DNA from: Erysipelotrichaceae bacterium
Lineage (GTDB): Bacteria > Bacillota_I > Bacilli_A > Erysipelotrichales > Erysipelotrichaceae
DNA length: 24,000 nucleotides
Assembly (NCBI GenBank): GCA_900759455.1
Contig: CAAEVI010000001.1
Coordinates: 1,467 to 25,466 of the forward strand
Direction: 5' to 3'
The translations under genes and the position numbers were made by a program. The number at the start of each line of letters is the position of its first letter. Within the stretch, counting starts at the first letter, position 1. A model generated the notes under the pieces. The model was not told the origin of the DNA. It searched no databases and was given only the letters and a program-made list of their open reading frames with translations. Positions 4,246-16,542 of this stretch are shown here, piece by piece.

Positions 4246-6954
4246 GTGGATATGCAGGAAGAAATTTTATTGGTAATTGTACGAAATTGTGCCAAACATC
4301 AGTATGAAAAAAATACAATCTCTTTAATCAGTGAACAAATAAAGGTATCTAGAAACAAGGCGGCCATGGCTATTAATGAACTCGTTGAAACGGGACATTT
4401 GATTCGTGTTAACTCAAAACCGTATATCTATCTTGCCACTTCCTATTTAAGGAACAAGGGCATTGAAGTGACTTCTGCTTCTTATTCGAGTCTGGATGAT
4501 GTATGGGCTCTTGCAAATGAAGAAAAGAAAGATTTTGAAAAGCTAGTAGGATACAATCATTCACTGAAGAATATCGTTAAACAGTGTAAAGCTACGATTT
4601 CTTATCCTCCTAACGGTTTGCCTATGATGCTGTATGGCCCGACAGGAACAGGAAAAAGTTATATTGCGAAACTGACATATGAGTGGGCACGCAATCACGG
4701 CATATTAGATCCTGCGGCCAAGTTTGTAACGGTCAATTGCAGTGAGTATGCCAACAACCCGGAATTATTGACGGCAAATTTGTTCGGGCACATCAAGGGG
4801 GCTTTTACGGGAGCTGAAAAAGATAATGAGGGATTGCTTGCATTGGCTGACAAAGGTGTTTTGTTTTTAGACGAGGTGCATGAACTGAAGGCGGAGTGTC
4901 AGGAAAAGCTCTTCTTGTTCATGGATCAGGGAATTTATCACCGTGTCGGGGATAACGACAAATGGTATAAGTCCGATGTCCGCATTATTTTTGCGACGAC
5001 CGAGCAACCGGAAAAAGTTTTGCTGAAGACACTGTTAAGACGTATACCGATGTTTGTAACTATACCTTCTTTATCACAGCGAGGCATGCGAGAACGGATT
5101 GAATTAATGTATGATTTGTTTTCTAAAGAGGAAAAAAGACTTGGATGTTCTATTAAAATGTCCAATAAAGTTTATCGTATTTTGTTATCTGCCAAGATGC
5201 CGGGCAACATCGGGGAATTGAAAAGTGTGATTCAATCGTGCTGCATTAATTCTTTGTTTGAAAGAGAAGAAAATGATCTGGTAATCAGAATGGAAAGTCT
5301 TCCCGGTCATCTTCTTGATCAAGTTTATACTTCGACAAAGCTTATTCAGGAAGAGGAATACATTCACGTTGAGGATTTAAAAGGATTCTATGATGTAGAG
5401 AAAGGAATCATTCGATTAAATCAGGAACTTTTAGACTGTTTTAAAGAATTTCAGAAAAACCGTGATCATTCGCTTCTCATGAAGAAAGGGAAGCTGATTG
5501 TTGAAGACTATTTAAGTCTTCGTGTATATAAACAAAAAGAAACACCGGAGATTGAATATTATCGAAGAGGAATTGAACATATCTTTGAATTGGTGGAAGG
5601 TCGGTATGGTTTTAAGACACGCAACAGTGACCGGATAGCCTTAGCTATGTATTTAGATGAGATCCATCACGATTATCATGATTTCAGACAATGGAGCCTG
5701 CGACATGAAGAAGAATGTGAAGATTTCCTTCAATACCTTGAACAGGAATGTTTCAGAGCGACAAATGTATCACTGGAAATTTGTACTTATCTGAAATCCT
5801 ATCTGGAAATGGATATTTATCCGATTTTGATTATCTCTTATATTTTCTATGTCTATAATTTAAATAAAGATCAGAGACTGGCTCAAAAAGCCTGTGTTGT
5901 ATTGGCGCACGGATTTTCCACTGCCAGTTCTATTGCGGATGCTGCTAACCGCTTTTTGGAAAGCTATATCTTTGATGCGATCGATATGCCGCTTCATATT
6001 GATACAGCCATGATTACTGATAAGTTGAATTCTTATCTTTCCAGAGTAGGAAAAATCAAAGAATTGTATTTGTTAGTGGATATGGGAAGTTTATCGGATA
6101 TTTACAAAGGCCTGCATGTAGAGAACGTGGACATAGGATTGATCAACAATGTCAGCACACCGATGGCATTGGAACTTGGTTCTGCCATTCGTCAAGGCTT
6201 GTCTATGGAAGATGTCTTTTCACAGACAGCCAAACAAGTCGGATCTTCTTTGTCTTATCATATCGAACAAAATCATTCCAAGACGCCGATCATTTTATGC
6301 TCTTGTGCCAGCGGTATGGGAACAGCAAAGAAATTAAGGATGATGATTGAAGATTCATTTCCGGAAGGCGTTCATTTGGAAGTACATACACAGGATTACA
6401 ATGAGTTATTATCCAAAGGGAAAGATGAGGGACCTTTGAGTGAATATCAGATTATCTGTATTATCGGAACATTGAATCCAAATGTGGATGGATTGCCGTT
6501 TGTCGGAATTGAAGACCTGATCATTAATGAGAATCTGGAAAAATTTAATTCATATTTTAAAGATTATATGTCGAGTGAACAAATTGAAATATTTAATAAA
6601 AATGTTTTGCGTAATTTTACTCTTTCGAATATCATGAATAATCTGACGATTTTGAATCCTTCAAAACTCTTGGAACAGGTCGCTGATGCCATTGACCAGC
6701 TTCAGACTTATCTCCAGGTTCAGTTGAAAACGAAAACATGTTTTGGTATGTATGTGCATATATGTTGTCTGATAGAACGATTGGTTGTGGCCAAAAAGTT
6801 TACGGAATACAAAGCCTGTGAAGATTTTGTCGAACAACACAGTGTATTCATTGATTTTACCAAGAAGGCTTTCCATAAGGTCGAAAATTTCTATGGTGTG
6901 GATATTCCGCTGGAAGAAATTGCTTATATTTATGATTATGTGAAAAATGACTAA
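4246..6954 (+). CDS. Sigma-54-dependent LevR-type transcriptional activator (HTH, AAA+, PRD, EIIA-Man-like, EIIB-Gat-like, PRD)
   Basis: Walker A is GPTGTGKS (4636-4659). The sigma-54 contact loop GAFTGA lies at 4798-4815, and Walker B is VLFLDEVHEL. The EIIA-Man-like segment VVLAHGFSTASSIADAANRF contains a His, and the EIIB-Gat-like segment ILCSCASGMGTAKKL contains a Cys. PRD-like helices flank these segments. The start could be GTG 4246 or ATG 4252. Confidence 0.9.
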   Translation: MDMQEEILLVIVRNCAKHQYEKNTISLISEQIKVSRNKAAMAINELVETGHLIRVNSKPYIYLATSYLRNKGIEVTSASYSSLDDVWALANEEKKDFEKLVGYNHSLKNIVKQCKATISYPPNGLPMMLYGPTGTGKSYIAKLTYEWARNHGILDPAAKFVTVNCSEYANNPELLTANLFGHIKGAFTGAEKDNEGLLALADKGVLFLDEVHELKAECQEKLFLFMDQGIYHRVGDNDKWYKSDVRIIFATTEQPEKVLLKTLLRRIPMFVTIPSLSQRGMRERIELMYDLFSKEEKRLGCSIKMSNKVYRILLSAKMPGNIGELKSVIQSCCINSLFEREENDLVIRMESLPGHLLDQVYTSTKLIQEEEYIHVEDLKGFYDVEKGIIRLNQELLDCFKEFQKNRDHSLLMKKGKLIVEDYLSLRVYKQKETPEIEYYRRGIEHIFELVEGRYGFKTRNSDRIALAMYLDEIHHDYHDFRQWSLRHEEECEDFLQYLEQECFRATNVSLEICTYLKSYLEMDIYPILIISYIFYVYNLNKDQRLAQKACVVLAHGFSTASSIADAANRFLESYIFDAIDMPLHIDTAMITDKLNSYLSRVGKIKELYLLVDMGSLSDIYKGLHVENVDIGLINNVSTPMALELGSAIRQGLSMEDVFSQTAKQVGSSLSYHIEQNHSKTPIILCSCASGMGTAKKLRMMIEDSFPEGVHLEVHTQDYNELLSKGKDEGPLSEYQIICIIGTLNPNVDGLPFVGIEDLIINENLEKFNSYFKDYMSSEQIEIFNKNVLRNFTLSNIMNNLTILNPSKLLEQVADAIDQLQTYLQVQLKTKTCFGMYVHICCLIERLVVAKKFTEYKACEDFVEQHSVFIDFTKKAFHKVENFYGVDIPLEEIAYIYDYVKND

Positions 6955-7481: not shown

Positions 7482-7949
7482 ATGATCAAATTATTACGAG
7501 TAGATCATCGTTTGCTGCATGGACAAGTGGCTTTTTCTTGGAAGTCTCACGTAGATGCCGACTGTATCTTAATTGCCAACGATGCGGTAATGAAAGATGA
7601 TCTTAGAAAAACATCTATCAAATTAGCAAAACCTGCGGGAACAAAACTTGTTATCAAAAGTATCAAGGATTCGATTGATTCTATTAACAGCGGAGTGACA
7701 GATAAATACAAATTGTTGATTGTTGTTGAATCAATCAAAGATGCCAGTGAATTGATCCATAATTGTGGCATCAGACATTTGAATTTGGGAGGCACCAAAG
7801 CAACAAGTCAAACAAGGAATATTTCAAAGGCTGTGAACATTACAGAAGAAGAAACAGCGATTTTAAAAGATCTGGTAGCCGATGGAGTAGATGTGGAAAT
7901 TCAGATGGTGCCGGATGATGCAGCTGTAAAAGTCGAAAAAGTATTATAG
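7482..7949 (+). CDS. PTS mannose-family EIIB component
   Basis: LLRVDHRLLHGQVAFSW matches the EIIB-Man/Sor active-site signature (D-x-R-L-[IL]-H-G-Q-V). The RBS GGAGGAAAG lies upstream. Confidence 0.9.
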   Translation: MIKLLRVDHRLLHGQVAFSWKSHVDADCILIANDAVMKDDLRKTSIKLAKPAGTKLVIKSIKDSIDSINSGVTDKYKLLIVVESIKDASELIHNCGIRHLNLGGTKATSQTRNISKAVNITEEETAILKDLVADGVDVEIQMVPDDAAVKVEKVL

Positions 7950-7960
7950 GAGGAAGAGAT

Positions 7961-8737
7961 ATGTTTCAAGCAATATTATTAGGTCTTGTAGCGATGATCG
8001 GAAATGCGGAATATCTATTTGGTACATGTTTGCTTTCCAGACCTATCGTTATGGGAACATTGACGGGAATTGTGCTGGGAGATATTCCGACCGGAGTATC
8101 TTTGGGAGCAACACTTGAATTAGCATTTATGGGGGCATTTTCAATCGGGGCAAGCATTCCGCCGGAAATGATTTCCGGAACGGTGTTGGGAACTGCTTTT
8201 ACAATTACGACAGGTGCCGGACCGGAAACAGCATTGACAGTAGGTCTTCCGGTAGCTTCTCTTGTATTGATTGCCAAGAACATCGGAATGGTATTTATTC
8301 TCCCTCCGTTTGTTCATAAAGCGGATGACTATGCGAAACAAGGAAATATGCGCGGAGTAGCTTTGATGCATTTCCTGGGAGGATTCTTCGGTGTCAACTT
8401 GATCATTGGTCTGTGTGTTGGATGCGGTTTCTATGCCGGAGGTTCAGCAGTAGAAGCTCTGCTTAATATGATACCTGACTGGGTAAACAATGGATTGCAA
8501 ATTACAATGGGCTTACTTCCGGCAATCGGATTTGGTCTGTTACTGAAAATGATCATGAACAAGGGACTTGCATGTTTCTTCCTGCTGGGATTTGCATTGT
8601 CAGTATATTTGGAAATCCCTACAACCGGAATAGCCATTTTCGGTGCAATCATCGCCATTGTATTAACACAGTTAAAATCAAATGCGTCTGCACTTAACAC
8701 GCAAGGAGGAGGTTTGGACGAAGATGACGACTTCTAA
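7961..8737 (+). CDS. PTS mannose-family EIIC membrane component
   Basis: The protein is polytopic, hydrophobic and Gly-rich, of the size and composition of ManY/LevF-type IIC. It sits between the IIB and IID genes. Confidence 0.85.
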   Translation: MFQAILLGLVAMIGNAEYLFGTCLLSRPIVMGTLTGIVLGDIPTGVSLGATLELAFMGAFSIGASIPPEMISGTVLGTAFTITTGAGPETALTVGLPVASLVLIAKNIGMVFILPPFVHKADDYAKQGNMRGVALMHFLGGFFGVNLIIGLCVGCGFYAGGSAVEALLNMIPDWVNNGLQITMGLLPAIGFGLLLKMIMNKGLACFFLLGFALSVYLEIPTTGIAIFGAIIAIVLTQLKSNASALNTQGGGLDEDDDF

Positions 8738-12328: not shown

Positions 12329-12468
12329 ATGAGATGTATTATGAGTGATACTATAGTTATGACGATTATAAGAAAAACCGGTTAAATTGTTTTACTTTCA
12401 AAAGGTTGCAGAAACAAAAATGATAAAGTAAGATTATGTTCTTTATCGATCATTCGTATAGTAAAAAA

Positions 12469-12493
12469 GCAGAATCATTTTCTGCTTTTTTTT
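12469..12493. terminator. Bidirectional-looking Rho-independent terminator closing the sigma-54 PTS operon
   Basis: Stem GCAGAA (12469-12474) pairs with TTCTGC (12480-12485) around loop TCATT. It is flanked by A6 upstream and T8 downstream. Confidence 0.7.
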
Positions 12494-12857
12494 GAGATAA
12501 TTATATGTTGAAGGTGATCTTCCGTATGAGTGATTGTTGTAATGTGATAAGCATGTCGTTTTTCTTATAAGGTCTGTTTGGTCATAAGAATCTATCGTTC
12601 AAAATAAACATAGTAAATATTGAAGGTTTTTTATCCATGAGAGAGCCTAACTCTGTATACTATATAGATAATGAGAAACAAGGATATTAAGTAATATTTT
12701 ATTTCACTGGAAAAGTATATATTATATAATTTTCTAATGTAAAAGGGGATTAAATATTATTTAGTTTATTCCTTATTATATAGTGAATTGTCCATTAATG
12801 AAATCATATGTGTTAAAATAAATAAAGCTTAGATAATGTGAGTATTGAGGTGTTTAG

Positions 12858-14750
12858 ATGCTGATTTATGAAGGAACAAAGGATAATTTTTTAATGAGTG
12901 TAGAGCAAGATACAATTGCAGTAGAAATAGAGAACAATATTTATGAAAGAATGCATCGCCATACAGCGAAAAATGAATTTCGTGCATGGGAAAATTCTAT
13001 GGAATACATGTATAAGGTTTTGAATGATCGAGAGATTCCGTCGGATGCGGGGATTGCTATAGAGTATAATATTCCACAGACATCTAAACGGGTGGATTTT
13101 TTAATATCGGGGTATGGAAAAAAAGAAAGTGCTAATATTGTTTTAATTGAATTAAAACAATGGGATGAACTGGAGGCGATTCCAGGACGGGATGGTCTGG
13201 TAGAAACGTACACCGGAAATGCTTTAAGACAAGTTGTACATCCATCTTATCAGGCGTGGTCATACGCAATGCTAATTAGTGATTATAATGCTTCTGTGCA
13301 GGAAGGAATGGTATCCATTCGCCCTTGTGCATATTTACATAACTACAGACGACATGATCAAGACCCGCTTGATGCTGAGCAGTATGCAATTTATCTCGAA
13401 GATGCCCCGACGTTTACACGTGGGGAAGTTACTAAGTTAAGAGAATTTATTAAGAAAAACATACAAACAGGGGATAATAAAGAATTGATTTATAAGATTG
13501 ATTCAGGTCGCATCAAGCCTTCGAAAAGCCTTCAAGATTCCATTGCAAAAATGTTGAAAGGTAACCGTGAGTTTATCATGTTGGATGAACAAAAAGTTAT
13601 TTATGAAGAAGTCTTAAATGAAGCAAGGCAATCCGTTAAAGATGAAAAAAAGAGGGTTTTAATTATCAAAGGAGGACCGGGAACCGGTAAAAGTGTTGTC
13701 GCAATTAATCTGCTTGCCCAATTAACAAAAGAAGATCAGTTTTGCCAGTATGTATCAAAGAATTCGGCACCGAGAAATGTGTATCGCAAAAAATTAAAAG
13801 GAAGTATTAGGAAAAGCAGTGTTGATAATATGTTTAAAAGCTCAGGTGTTTATACTGAAACTGAAAGTAATATGATTGATACGATTCTTGTAGATGAAGC
13901 ACATCGATTAAATGAAAAATCAGGAATGTTTCATAACATAGGAGAGAATCAGATTAAGGAAATCATTCATTCGGCAAAATGCAGTGTATTCTTTATTGAC
14001 GAAAGTCAAAGGGTTACACTTCAAGATATAGGTCGAATCTCAGAGATAAAAAAATGGGCAGAAAAAGAAAATGCACGGGTAAAAGAAATGGAATTGGCAT
14101 CACAGTTCAGGTGTAACGGCTCAAATGGATATCTAGCATGGTTGGATCACATATTGCAAATTCGGGATACTGCCAACTATGATATGGAAGGAATAGATTA
14201 TGAAATCCGGATTATTGATTCTCCAAAAGAAATGCAGGAATTAATTGTTGATAAAAATCGCATTTCAAAAAATAAAGCAAGAATTTTAGCAGGTTATTGT
14301 TGGGACTGGAAAAAAGAAGGTGTAAATGATACCTCAGTACACGATATCATAATTGATGATTTTGAGATTAGCTGGAATTTAAAAAATACAACTACTTTTG
14401 CGATAGATGATGATTCTATCAATGAAGCAGGATGTATCCATACTTCCCAAGGATTAGAATTTGATTATGTGGGGGTTATTATTGGTAATGACATGCGTTA
14501 TGAAAATGGAAAAATCATTACAGACTTTACAAAAAGAGCAAAAACAGATCAATCATTGAAAGGTATAAAAAAATTATATAAAGAAAATCCAGAGTTTGCG
14601 AAAAAAGAAGCAGATGAAATTATAAAAAACACATATCGTACATTGATGACACGTGGTATGAAAGGTTGTTATGTATATTGTACAGATTCTCAGCTGTCTG
14701 ATTACTTTAAGGAATGTTTGAAGATACAAAAAAGTGAGGATAAGAAATGA
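12858..14750 (+). CDS. DUF2075 / Schlafen-group-3-type P-loop helicase with an N-terminal PD-(D/E)xK-like nuclease motif
   Basis: The N-terminal region reads E69...D80(RVDFLISG)...E98-L-K100(LIELKQW), a D-x(n)-ExK pattern. Walker A is GGPGTGKS (K278; nt 13671-13694) and Walker B is ILVDEAHRL (nt 13893-13904). The DUF2075-typical segments FFIDESQ and SQFRCNGSNGYLAWLD are present. SF1-like C-terminal motifs are CIHTSQGLEFDYVGVIIG and YRTLMTRGMKGCYVY. The RBS is GAGGTG. Confidence 0.8.
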   Translation: MLIYEGTKDNFLMSVEQDTIAVEIENNIYERMHRHTAKNEFRAWENSMEYMYKVLNDREIPSDAGIAIEYNIPQTSKRVDFLISGYGKKESANIVLIELKQWDELEAIPGRDGLVETYTGNALRQVVHPSYQAWSYAMLISDYNASVQEGMVSIRPCAYLHNYRRHDQDPLDAEQYAIYLEDAPTFTRGEVTKLREFIKKNIQTGDNKELIYKIDSGRIKPSKSLQDSIAKMLKGNREFIMLDEQKVIYEEVLNEARQSVKDEKKRVLIIKGGPGTGKSVVAINLLAQLTKEDQFCQYVSKNSAPRNVYRKKLKGSIRKSSVDNMFKSSGVYTETESNMIDTILVDEAHRLNEKSGMFHNIGENQIKEIIHSAKCSVFFIDESQRVTLQDIGRISEIKKWAEKENARVKEMELASQFRCNGSNGYLAWLDHILQIRDTANYDMEGIDYEIRIIDSPKEMQELIVDKNRISKNKARILAGYCWDWKKEGVNDTSVHDIIIDDFEISWNLKNTTTFAIDDDSINEAGCIHTSQGLEFDYVGVIIGNDMRYENGKIITDFTKRAKTDQSLKGIKKLYKENPEFAKKEADEIIKNTYRTLMTRGMKGCYVYCTDSQLSDYFKECLKIQKSEDKK

Positions 14751-15094
14751 ACAAGGAAACAATAGAGAAGGTCTTAAAATTCAGAGATGATCGGAACTGG
14801 AAACAGTTTCATAACCCGAAAGATTTAGCAGTCTCCATTAGTTTGGAAGCGGCAGAACTGCTTGAGGTATTTCAGTGGAGTGCAGATGATGTCTGGTGTA
14901 AAGAGAAACAGGATAAAATCCGAGAAGAACTGGCAGATGTGTTGAATTACTGTATTTTAATGGCAGATACTTGTGGATTAGATATGGATGAAATTATATT
15001 GGAAAAGGTAAAGAAAAATGCTGAAAAATATCCGATAGAAAAAGCTTATGGACATAAGGAAAAATATACTGAGCTAACAAAAGAAAAAAACTGA
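14747..15094 (+). CDS. MazG-like all-alpha NTP pyrophosphohydrolase, DCTPP1/RS21-C6 type
   Basis: FRDDRNWKQFHNPKDLAVSISLEAAELLEVFQW closely follows the DCTPP1 pattern (F..ERDW.QFH.P.NL...L..E.GEL.E.FQW). The EXXE (E34/E37) and EXXD (E61/D64) metal motifs are intact. The start overlaps the upstream stop (ATGA, 14747-14750). Confidence 0.8.
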   Translation: MNKETIEKVLKFRDDRNWKQFHNPKDLAVSISLEAAELLEVFQWSADDVWCKEKQDKIREELADVLNYCILMADTCGLDMDEIILEKVKKNAEKYPIEKAYGHKEKYTELTKEKN

Positions 15095-15141
15095 TATTTC
15101 ATTAAAATATATTAAAACAGTATTTTAAACGAGGTGGTGAA

Positions 15142-15990
15142 ATGAGCTTTAAAGATCAGACATCAAAAGATGACAAAGGGAAGGCGTTTTCTGCTGAGCA
15201 GGTCATTGTTTTTCCCGGGATTGAAAACTTAAAAAAAGAAGTGGAGAAAATGCGTACGGAGCTGTCTATGCTTTTATTGGAGCGGGATGAGTTGCTGCTT
15301 GTGATTTGTCCGAATATTGAAACTGATTATATGTTGAAATTAGGAAATATCGAATATAAGGCCTATGAAGCAATGTGTGCCATGCTTCGTTTAAAACGTA
15401 AGATCGAACTGCTTCAGGCAAAAAGAAACAGACAGGAAAACATTGTTCTCATTGATATTGAGAAAGTGTTGGATGAAGAGTTCGTCGAATATCAGAGACA
15501 GTTGGAAGAACAGTTGAACAAAATGAATGAAGCACTACACCGAAGCCGTTTAGAGGCTTTGTCACAGGAAGATACACGGGAGCTTAAAAAGCTTTACCGC
15601 AAAATCATGAAGCTGTTACATCCGGATCTCAATCCAGGTCTTTCGAAATCAAAAACAGAATTGTTTCATCATGCGGTCAGTGCCTATAAGAACGGCGATC
15701 TGGATACGCTACGCATGATCTTTGAAATGGTTGGAGATGATCCGCTGCCAGAGCTGAAAAGTGACGCAATGACACAGCTGACAGAAGAAAAAGAACGTTT
15801 GAAGGATTTGCTGAAATCAATCACAGACAGCATCGAAAAGATAAAGTCAAGCTATCCGTATACCTTGAAAGAACTTCTTGAAGATGAAAAGCAGATAAAA
15901 GAAAAGAAGCAGGAATCTGAAGATATTTTGAAGCAGTATCAGGAAATGATCGCGCTTTATAAAAGAAGGATCGAAGAGATACTGAGGTGA
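15142..15990 (+). CDS. Coiled-coil protein with an internal J-domain (DnaJ-like, HPD motif)
   Basis: LKKLYRKIMKLLHPDLNPGLSKSKTELFHHAVSAYKNGDLDTL matches J-domain helix II, HPD and helix III (HPD at nt 15619-15627; aa 160-162). The flanking regions have heptad-like charged sequence. The RBS is GAGGTGG. Confidence 0.7.
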   Translation: MSFKDQTSKDDKGKAFSAEQVIVFPGIENLKKEVEKMRTELSMLLLERDELLLVICPNIETDYMLKLGNIEYKAYEAMCAMLRLKRKIELLQAKRNRQENIVLIDIEKVLDEEFVEYQRQLEEQLNKMNEALHRSRLEALSQEDTRELKKLYRKIMKLLHPDLNPGLSKSKTELFHHAVSAYKNGDLDTLRMIFEMVGDDPLPELKSDAMTQLTEEKERLKDLLKSITDSIEKIKSSYPYTLKELLEDEKQIKEKKQESEDILKQYQEMIALYKRRIEEILR

Positions 15991-15994
15991 TGAG

Positions 15995-16390
15995 ATGAAT
16001 GATATTGTAGAATCTCAAAGTAGTGTCTTGGCTGCACTGCATGGAAAAAACGGGGAAATCTCTTTGCCGAAGCCTTTTGAAAGAAATATTTTCCTGTTTG
16101 ATACCTATGTGGCCGGAACGACACATATTGAGGGAATGGAAGAATTGGAGCCCGCTCTACAGATTGAAGACAAACTATCGTTTTTCAGAGAACCGGATAA
16201 TCGCTTTGATGATCAGGCCATTGTGATCAAAACAATGGACGGTGTAAAAATCGGTTATATTCCCCGGCAGGATAATGTTATCTTTGCGCGGTTGATGGAT
16301 GCCGGAAAACTGTTGTTTGGAAAGATTTCCTCAAAGGAAATCATAGGTTCCTGGGTAAAGATCGGAATCAAAGTATATTTGCATGAATAA
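15995..16390 (+). CDS. Stand-alone HIRAN-domain protein
   Basis: The sequence FDTYVAGTTHIEG...LSFFREPDNRFDDQAIVIKTMDGVKIGYIPRQDNVIFARLMDAG fits the HIRAN pattern (VAG..y...L.L.REP.N..D.nAI.V....g..IGYiPr..a..la.lmD.g). The start lies 4 nt after the upstream stop, behind GAGGTGA. Confidence 0.75.
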   Translation: MNDIVESQSSVLAALHGKNGEISLPKPFERNIFLFDTYVAGTTHIEGMEELEPALQIEDKLSFFREPDNRFDDQAIVIKTMDGVKIGYIPRQDNVIFARLMDAGKLLFGKISSKEIIGSWVKIGIKVYLHE

Positions 16391-16393
16391 AGA

Positions 16394-16427
16394 AGAAACG
16401 CTTGTGAAAGATGAGCGTTTCTTTTTT
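16394..16427 (+). terminator. Rho-independent terminator closing the four-gene cassette
   Basis: A 9-bp stem AGAAACGCT (16394-16402) pairs with AGCGTTTCT (16414-16422) around an 11-nt loop, and runs into a T-tract (to 16427). Confidence 0.8.
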
Positions 16428-16542
16428 ATCATTGAAACAGCGTGATGATCGTGTATGATCTGCATCATTATATCGTTCAAAATGTCCATATTATTATGGT
16501 CATTTTTACGAATTTTGGAAACAATTCTTTGCTCAGTTTCAA

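Follow-up and report, generated by a model that had tools for sequence, protein, structure and literature searches.

The stretch of DNA considered here, a window of 24,000 nucleotides from an Erysipelotrichaceae bacterium (GenBank assembly GCA_900759455.1, contig CAAEVI010000001.1, positions 1,467 to 25,466 of the forward strand), carries two adjacent genes that encode a J-domain protein and a stand-alone HIRAN protein, together called the J-HIRAN pair below (Table 1). Both open reading frames (ORFs) stand as described in an earlier sequence-only reading of this DNA, at 282 and 131 amino acids on the same strand, and so does the 4-nucleotide spacing between the TGA of the J-protein gene and the ATG of the HIRAN gene (positions 15991 to 15994). 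In both genes a GAGG Shine-Dalgarno core lies 7 nucleotides 5' of the ATG, and because that of the HIRAN gene falls over the TGA of the J-protein gene, with a gap of only 4 nucleotides, the arrangement is typical of translational coupling. A G+C-containing hairpin of 9 bp follows directly 3' of the HIRAN stop codon; its 11-nucleotide loop exceeds the 8-nucleotide limit of the automatic terminator scan, which passed over it.

Table 1. The J-HIRAN pair, its sequence elements and the genes upstream of it (positions are those of the window)
Feature	Position	Strand	Basis
J-protein gene, 282 amino acids, all-helical J-domain scaffold	15142-15990	+	ORF, more than 1,200 homologues, AlphaFold
HIRAN gene, 131 amino acids, stand-alone	15995-16390	+	ORF, PF08797, PDB 3k2y match
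J-domain, amino acids 141-197 (helix II, HPD loop, helices III and IV)	15562-15732	+	PF00226, family profile, BFVD
HPD tripeptide, amino acids 160-162	15619-15627	+	Invariant in 99-sequence alignment
HIRAN domain, amino acids 33-130, after a 32-residue N-terminal tail	16091-16384	+	PF08797
Shine-Dalgarno-like GAGGTGGTG of the J-protein gene	15131-15139	+	GAGG core 7 nucleotides before the ATG; read from sequence
Shine-Dalgarno-like GAGGTGA of the HIRAN gene	15984-15990	+	Overlaps the stop codon of the J-protein gene; read from sequence
Terminator-like hairpin AGAAACGCT / AGCGTTTCT, then T-run	16394-16428	+	Read from sequence
DUF2075/Schlafen-type helicase and MazG-like pyrophosphohydrolase, separate cassette	12858-15094	+	Pfam
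DUF2075/Schlafen-group-3 helicase, 630 amino acids	12858-14750	+	Pfam, 350 bits
MazG-like pyrophosphohydrolase, 115 amino acids	14747-15094	+	Pfam, 86 bits

To place the upstream protein, we compared it with its relatives. In the window protein itself, PF00226 matches amino acids 141 to 183 (profile positions 10 to 51 of 63) with E = 1.6e-5 and a score of 25.4 bits, where the cut-off is 27.8. Searched exhaustively with HMMER, 1.84 billion cluster representatives (clusters at 50% identity) yielded 1,909 relatives, of which 267 reached E <= 1e-30; the motif LKKLYRxIVKxLHPDLNP is found in almost every one, and the HPD tripeptide is present in nearly all of 150 cluster representatives. An alignment of 99 relatives, sharing 35 to 65% identity with the window protein, has a mean column identity of 40%, and its only invariant residues are Y152, H160, P161, D162, and P239. 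The helix III positions A181-Y182, along with F175 where present, are near-invariant, and the basic residues of helix II are kept. Outside the J-domain, D49, Y63, E71, R86, and N96 make up a conserved face, and a YPY motif stands at residues 238-240. The J-domain assignment, proposed from the sequence of a single protein, is backed at the level of this family: HPD is invariant, PF00226 is matched by 91 of the 99 members at E <= 0.01, with some relatives above its cut-off (34.2 and 29.7 bits), and all 17 matches of the family profile in PDB are J-domains, aligned over helix II, HPD, and helix III (best E = 3e-6).

AlphaFold2, supplied with the same alignment, modeled an all-helical protein (pLDDT 93.7, pTM 0.84) with helices at residues 25-96, 103-135, 142-197, and 209-281. 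HPD falls between helices 142-159 and 169-183, which are followed by a helix at 187-197, in the order expected of a J-domain, and the J segment is flanked by a 72-residue helix (25-96) and other long helices. The coiled-coil-like flanks suggested earlier are borne out by the model as long helices, and one source labels a relative "coiled-coil domain-containing." Comparison of the whole model with PDB by Foldseek gave nothing significant, generic helical bundles only. Against BFVD, ranks 1, 2, 4, and 5 are phage proteins of 223 to 284 amino acids annotated as "J domain-containing" or "DnaJ-like" (best E = 3.4e-5, low TM-scores).

As the sequence-only reading had stated, the Gly/Phe region and zinc finger of DnaJ are missing, with no PF00684 or PF01556 at E <= 0.1, two Cys only, and no Gly/Phe stretch. 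A canonical DnaJ or CbpA protein (class A or B) was considered and rejected, as the NCBIfam DnaJ equivalogs score 12 to 20 bits against cut-offs above 330 and there is no DnaJ C-terminal domain. Lacking all three elements, the window protein is a class III J-domain protein, and one that falls in no described family. Internal J-domains are normal among class III proteins; the mid-protein position pointed out from the sequence is thus real, but unremarkable.

The assignment of the downstream protein also holds, with a PF08797 score of 58.2 bits against a cut-off of 24.7 over profile positions 2 to 94 of 96. Its nearest solved structure is a bacterial stand-alone HIRAN protein, 3k2y (Lactobacillus plantarum lp_0118; E = 4e-8), and the HIRAN chains of HLTF in PDB match at E of about 0.07. 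Five HIRAN-family motifs (AGT, EGIEE, REP-N--D--AI, GYVP--DN, and RLMDAGK-LF) are at least 90% conserved, as are an Asp (D72) and the aromatic pocket positions. When aligned by the motifs REP-N-x-[YF]-D and G-[HY]-x-x-[KR], D72 corresponds to HLTF D94, which we take to be the Asp that contacts the 3'-OH, and in the sequence alignment Phe71 and Tyr88 correspond to HLTF Y93 and H110, presumably the stacking aromatics. The N-terminal tail (residues 1 to 32, positions 15995 to 16090) is partly conserved at L12, H16, P25, P27, and E29 and could be a contact to the scaffold or a DnaK-binding peptide. Prokaryotic HIRAN domains have been described as uncharacterized (PMC11090510), and some occur in phages and alongside other partners, with no J partner. 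A distant stand-alone HIRAN, 36% identical, is found on the Lactobacillus amylolyticus plasmid NZ_CP031836.1 (locus L120, 30640 to 41008), placed after a nonspecific endonuclease gene and before the gene of an unrelated 516-amino-acid protein, with a restriction endonuclease nearby and a DUF2075 gene at about 2.6 kb; no J-like partner was found at this plasmid locus. A nonspecific endonuclease also lies near a J-HIRAN pair in locus L018.

Evidence that the two genes belong together comes from loci gathered by exact-protein look-ups and by scans of genomes, viral contigs, and metagenomes, the metagenome scan using a 9-sequence alignment and yielding 80 loci, and the scan of genome contigs, with a single J protein as query, two loci only. 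When grouped by shared neighbors, 88 loci fall into 41 distinct contexts. At every locus with intact downstream sequence (about 85), only a few nucleotides part the J-gene stop from the start of HIRAN, so that the linkage anticipated for other genomes extends over 41 unrelated neighborhoods. The two apparent exceptions are both disrupted. In L078 the N terminus of HIRAN is present before the assembly derails into high-G+C sequence, and in L089 an insertion sequence (IS)-type transposase gene truncates the J gene near amino acid 256, with no HIRAN detected downstream. The pair is still present, at 36% and 43% identity, in an unrelated neighborhood of an Oscillospiraceae metagenome-assembled genome. 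Across 57 nonredundant pairs, J-J and HIRAN-HIRAN identities are correlated (Mantel r = 0.93, a value reached by 0 of 999 permutations), indicating that the genes are inherited as a unit. A natural J-HIRAN fusion was sought in the family and none was found; the C-terminal extension of the relative P0355 is of low complexity and is not HIRAN. J-HIRAN is therefore an obligate, co-inherited, and mobile two-gene unit, and the pairing is far stronger than could be known from the window alone. In one clade (L086, L090 to L092, L096, L099, and L100), a conserved 131-amino-acid gene with no Pfam match lies 24 to 37 nucleotides upstream of the J gene, is sometimes duplicated (for example, L086 6551 to 6943), and may be a third component there.

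Dissecting the genomic setting of the pair reveals heterogeneous neighbors, which fit a small mobile cassette. In about 12 of 42 contexts, the pair has, no more than two genes away, type I restriction-modification (R-M) genes (L001 to L005, L010 to L013, the L016 group, L032/L037, and L039), McrBC/LlaJI (L018, L025, and L061), GmrSD (the L055 group and L081), DndE (L036), or DUF2075 (this window). In L001 to L005 (1 to 5060), the pair adjoins a type I R-M locus where several hsdS genes, oriented both ways, have an integrase among them. Its layout varies from sample to sample and resembles that of a phase-variable specificity shufflon. Most of the recovered loci belong to Clostridia, from metagenomes of the gut, fermenters, and digesters. 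An HSP70 gene was not seen beside the pair, and no DNA nearly identical to the window pair was found in phages and plasmids. The J protein has no match in PHROG and no meaningful one in PADLOC (ZorA alone, E = 0.029, 11 bits). That the pairing was undescribed, as had been supposed, is upheld, with no such operon in literature searches and none in PADLOC. What the sequence-only reading missed of the setting is the defense-island context and the variants with an ADP-ribose hydrolase.

Only part of the J protein is constant. A core starting at the motif VIVFPEFE is preceded by N-terminal modules that vary, namely, ADP-ribosylglycohydrolase (ARG, in proteins of 543 to 811 amino acids), DUF6508, ARG with DUF6508, a zinc ribbon, and at least three types of unknown nature. 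ARG fusions are found in P0249, P0250, P0255, L021, L043, L075, and L081; in L021, for example, an ARG-J fusion is followed by HIRAN. Some ARG-bearing J proteins also have an internal DUF6508 (up to 811 amino acids), a domain for which a literature search came back empty. The window J protein has no ARG domain by Pfam. Every one of the module-bearing members L021, L043, L050, L055, L075, L081, P0249, P0250, and P0255 still has HIRAN directly after it. In L089 a NADAR gene lies 36 nucleotides upstream of the J gene (6171 to 6950; 7747 to 8202). No linked ADP-ribosyltransferase accompanies the ARG and NADAR members. Conflict systems characteristically join variable accessory domains to a conserved core, and the ARG and NADAR link points to a predicted role in the removal of ADP-ribose from DNA or proteins.

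With a probability that we put at roughly 0.4, and hence tentatively, we read the pair as an autonomous, horizontally mobile conflict module of defense islands, in which HIRAN would act at DNA 3' ends and the J-scaffold would engage host DnaK. HPD is the motif that stimulates the Hsp70 ATPase, and its change from His to Gln abolishes function (PMC3486835); HIRAN binds DNA 3' ends, as summarized in PMC8262856. From these two properties we infer a physical complex of the two proteins at 3' ends. The DnaK-dependent remodeling at DNA ends suggested in the sequence-only reading is plausible from these domain functions. The J protein would serve in it as a rigid helical scaffold, with HIRAN docked on free 3' ends, while the invariant HPD of the J-domain would recruit the housekeeping DnaK of the host and trigger its ATPase. 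DnaK would then be clamped on a client at the DNA end; a stalled nucleoprotein complex might be that client, or a replication or terminal protein of foreign origin. In view of the enzymatic variants at the N terminus, the outcome that we prefer is disassembly of foreign or stalled nucleoprotein complexes; alternatively, DnaK-dependent growth arrest may ensue, as with the phage protein Rki. The ARG and NADAR domains of some relatives suggest that the DNA or protein so handled can be ADP-ribosylated. A bolder version of this proposal, which we regard as doubtful, makes host Hsp70 the output arm of an immune or conflict module. HIRAN would sense foreign or damaged 3' ends, the J-scaffold would load DnaK on the end-bound proteins of the invader or divert it to arrest the cell, and the sister variants would erase ADP-ribose marks set by phages or toxins. 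There is precedent for HIRAN in such a setting, as HIRAN proteins are predicted regulators of HipA-type effectors, with PDC-M03 as the example (PMC8262856, PMC13245101).

Several observations weigh against a mobile conflict module. The association with defense genes is a raw count within two genes, made with no matched background, and any enrichment is for this reason suggestive only; about 70% of the contexts consist of ordinary metabolic or transport genes. A tblastn search with the J protein gave no match in sequenced phages and plasmids. Together with the lack of a PHROG match and the presence of the pair on only four viral contigs of IMG/VR, this suggests that the J gene is host-side; the absence from phages and plasmids would fit a host gene and offers no direct link to phages. 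On the window protein alone the J-domain call is sub-threshold and marginal, and a Foldseek comparison of the isolated J segment with PDB was not significant (the HSJ1a J-domain ranked 5, with E = 1.6). As for HIRAN, R71-Y72 of HLTF is replaced by a conserved T/S-H in the family, and 3'-end binding is on that account not assured.

The strict coupling of the two genes, along with their mobility, would also suit a toxin-antitoxin or abortive infection system, where the J-scaffold would be a toxin that hijacks or titrates DnaK and HIRAN the antitoxin or sensor that frees it at DNA ends. Rki, a class III protein, is highly toxic in a manner dependent on DnaK and on an intact J-domain, as judged from the His-to-Gln mutant of HPD (PMC3486835), and the best BFVD matches by structure are phage J-domain proteins close in size (223 to 286 amino acids) to the window protein. 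The order of the genes, effector upstream and HIRAN downstream, is that of hipIN and PDC-M03, where HIRAN is the predicted antitoxin (PMC8262856). We nevertheless consider a toxin unlikely, as the HIRAN protein has no HipS-like or other known neutralizing domain and N-terminal fusions to enzymes such as ARG are easier to reconcile with processing than with a toxin alone; L089, where J is truncated and HIRAN is undetected downstream, permits no deduction. Service to the host itself, in DNA repair or replication restart, has its own attractions. HIRAN would be at stalled or reversed forks, DnaK, brought by the J-scaffold, would clear or remodel replisome or repair proteins, and ARG and NADAR, whose links to the family are compatible with lesion reversal, would remove ADP-ribose lesions from DNA. 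HLTF, a eukaryotic HIRAN protein, acts at stalled forks, as cited in PMC8262856, many contexts of the pair hold housekeeping genes, and a Y-family polymerase adjoins it in one. A repair factor seems rather unlikely, however, in view of the patchy, strain-variable location over 41 neighborhoods, the recurrence of restriction genes beside the pair, the origin of most recovered loci, in Clostridia from metagenomes of gut, fermenters, and digesters, and the presence of N-terminal modules that vary, a mark of accessory conflict genes and not of core repair.

Two further possibilities concern the J segment and the neighboring genes. The segment may no longer engage Hsp70, leaving a coiled-coil scaffold or a DNA-associated structural partner of HIRAN. 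The canonical helix I is without a PF00226 match, the profile being entered only at position 10, and the score under the cut-off and the nonsignificant fold search of the isolated segment tend the same way. Such degeneration is quite improbable. HPD, invariant in an alignment whose columns average 40% identity, is the element that the family conserves best; the basic residues of helix II are retained, as are the core Tyr, Phe, Ala, and Tyr, and without interaction with Hsp70 conservation of this kind would be difficult to account for. The other possibility, offered as an alternative in the sequence-only reading, is that the adjacent nuclease-helicase, DUF2075, has the pair as its chaperone-gated sensor, in a four-gene system with MazG. 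The arrangement DUF2075-MazG-J-HIRAN is fixed in all close relatives (human-gut samples), the 47-nucleotide A+T-rich spacer between the MazG and J genes holds no terminator, and the best promoter-like site (12703 to 12730) is upstream of DUF2075. DUF2075-MazG is possibly co-transcribed with J-HIRAN in the window; the stand-alone HIRAN of the Lactobacillus plasmid, too, has a DUF2075 gene in its vicinity. Comparative genomics largely refutes the idea. DUF2075 and MazG are beside the pair in 0 of the 41 other contexts and accompany it only in the species of the window, whereas elsewhere (L115 to L119), in clear defense islands, DUF2075-MazG has no J-HIRAN beside it and precedes the genes of an HNH_4 nuclease and a methyltransferase. 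Within the window, G+C is 0.30 to 0.34 in the DUF2075-MazG half versus 0.39 to 0.40 in the J-HIRAN half. Their absence from the other contexts and the G+C difference indicate two cassettes side by side in a small defense island, and the idea that J-HIRAN is a dedicated regulator of the DUF2075 helicase is not supported; the four-gene system, very improbable on this record, was rejected. In one close relative (L111, 4716 to 6609) DUF2075 is split into two ORFs of 464 and 183 amino acids, with MazG, J, and HIRAN intact, another point against a joint system.

The DUF2075-MazG neighbors themselves look like a separate candidate cassette, apparently undescribed. Their genes overlap by 4 nucleotides, and the N-terminal part of the helicase has an apparent PD-(D/E)xK-type motif, read from the sequence. 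The cassette drew only weak matches in PADLOC (PDC-S41, AbiO, and Nhi), and searching the literature for DUF2075 together with MazG turned up nothing. The four genes from DUF2075 to HIRAN are flanked by two sugar phosphotransferase system (PTS)/SIS operons. Between a HAD hydrolase gene and DUF2075 lies a 530-nucleotide intergenic stretch (12329 to 12857) with a G+C of 0.28, which may be the left edge of an inserted island.

J-domain proteins determine where Hsp70 acts, and we know of no bacterial J-domain protein dedicated to DNA ends. The J-HIRAN pair, a new combination of known domains, is a candidate for a new link of DnaK to DNA-end sensing. As a large, strictly paired, and mobile family found beside restriction systems, it offers a concrete case in which chaperone recruitment may be coupled to such sensing. 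If the pair is defensive, Hsp70 recruitment would be added to the strategies of immune effectors, and the ARG and NADAR variants would tie the module to the little-explored reversal of ADP-ribosylation. Its abundance in human-gut Clostridia suggests that it may shape the dynamics of phages and mobile elements in the microbiome.

Known systems resemble the pair in part. The class III proteins Rki, of phage RB43, and DjlA, of Escherichia coli, likewise have a J-domain with HPD as their sole DnaJ-like element, joined to an unrelated specialized domain, and housekeeping DnaK as the expected partner; Rki sets the class III precedent for action in phage-host conflict (PMC3486835). The window protein differs in having no detected sequence homology to them outside the J-domain, which it embeds in a long helical scaffold, and in its obligate pairing with HIRAN, a partnership not known from any J-domain protein described so far. 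In HipIN/HipL and PDC-M03, too, HIRAN directly follows an effector, or is fused to it, within a two-gene defense candidate (PMC8262856, PMC13245101, PMC11706625). PDC-M03B is the closest sequence-defined relative of the window HIRAN (E = 1e-13), with a match that covers the HIRAN part only, positions 125 to 217 of 250. In contrast to PDC-M03 and HipIN, the J-scaffold stands upstream, neither the window cluster nor the related loci have a HipA kinase domain, and 32 residues precede the window HIRAN domain, with no HipS-like domain. Eukaryotic HLTF/Rad5 has a HIRAN domain of the same family, PF08797, from which the window protein is set apart as a stand-alone form, fused to neither an SNF2 helicase nor a RING domain.

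Chaperones have been drawn into conflict systems before. The predicted GAP1-N2 GTPase systems, where HSP70 and GrpE occur along with a DnaJ-domain fusion, provide a precedent (PMC7159879), and for bNACHT25 it was shown experimentally that host DnaJ mediates phage sensing (PMC12169576). The former bring HSP70 and GrpE of their own, and in the latter host DnaJ is a cosensor; neither involves HIRAN or a scaffold of the kind seen here. Thematically, the nearest predictions are the ARG-centered anti-ADP-ribosylation systems with chaperones and the ARPP-HIRAN pair described by the Aravind laboratory (PMC9503650). The chaperones there are vWA, SseB, and TY-chaperones rather than J-domains, the partner of HIRAN is ARPP, and the distribution is mainly in Actinobacteria and Proteobacteria (PMC9503650), whereas the window protein is without ARG. 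What some members of the J family share with them is the combination of ARG and a chaperone element, to which the present family adds HIRAN.

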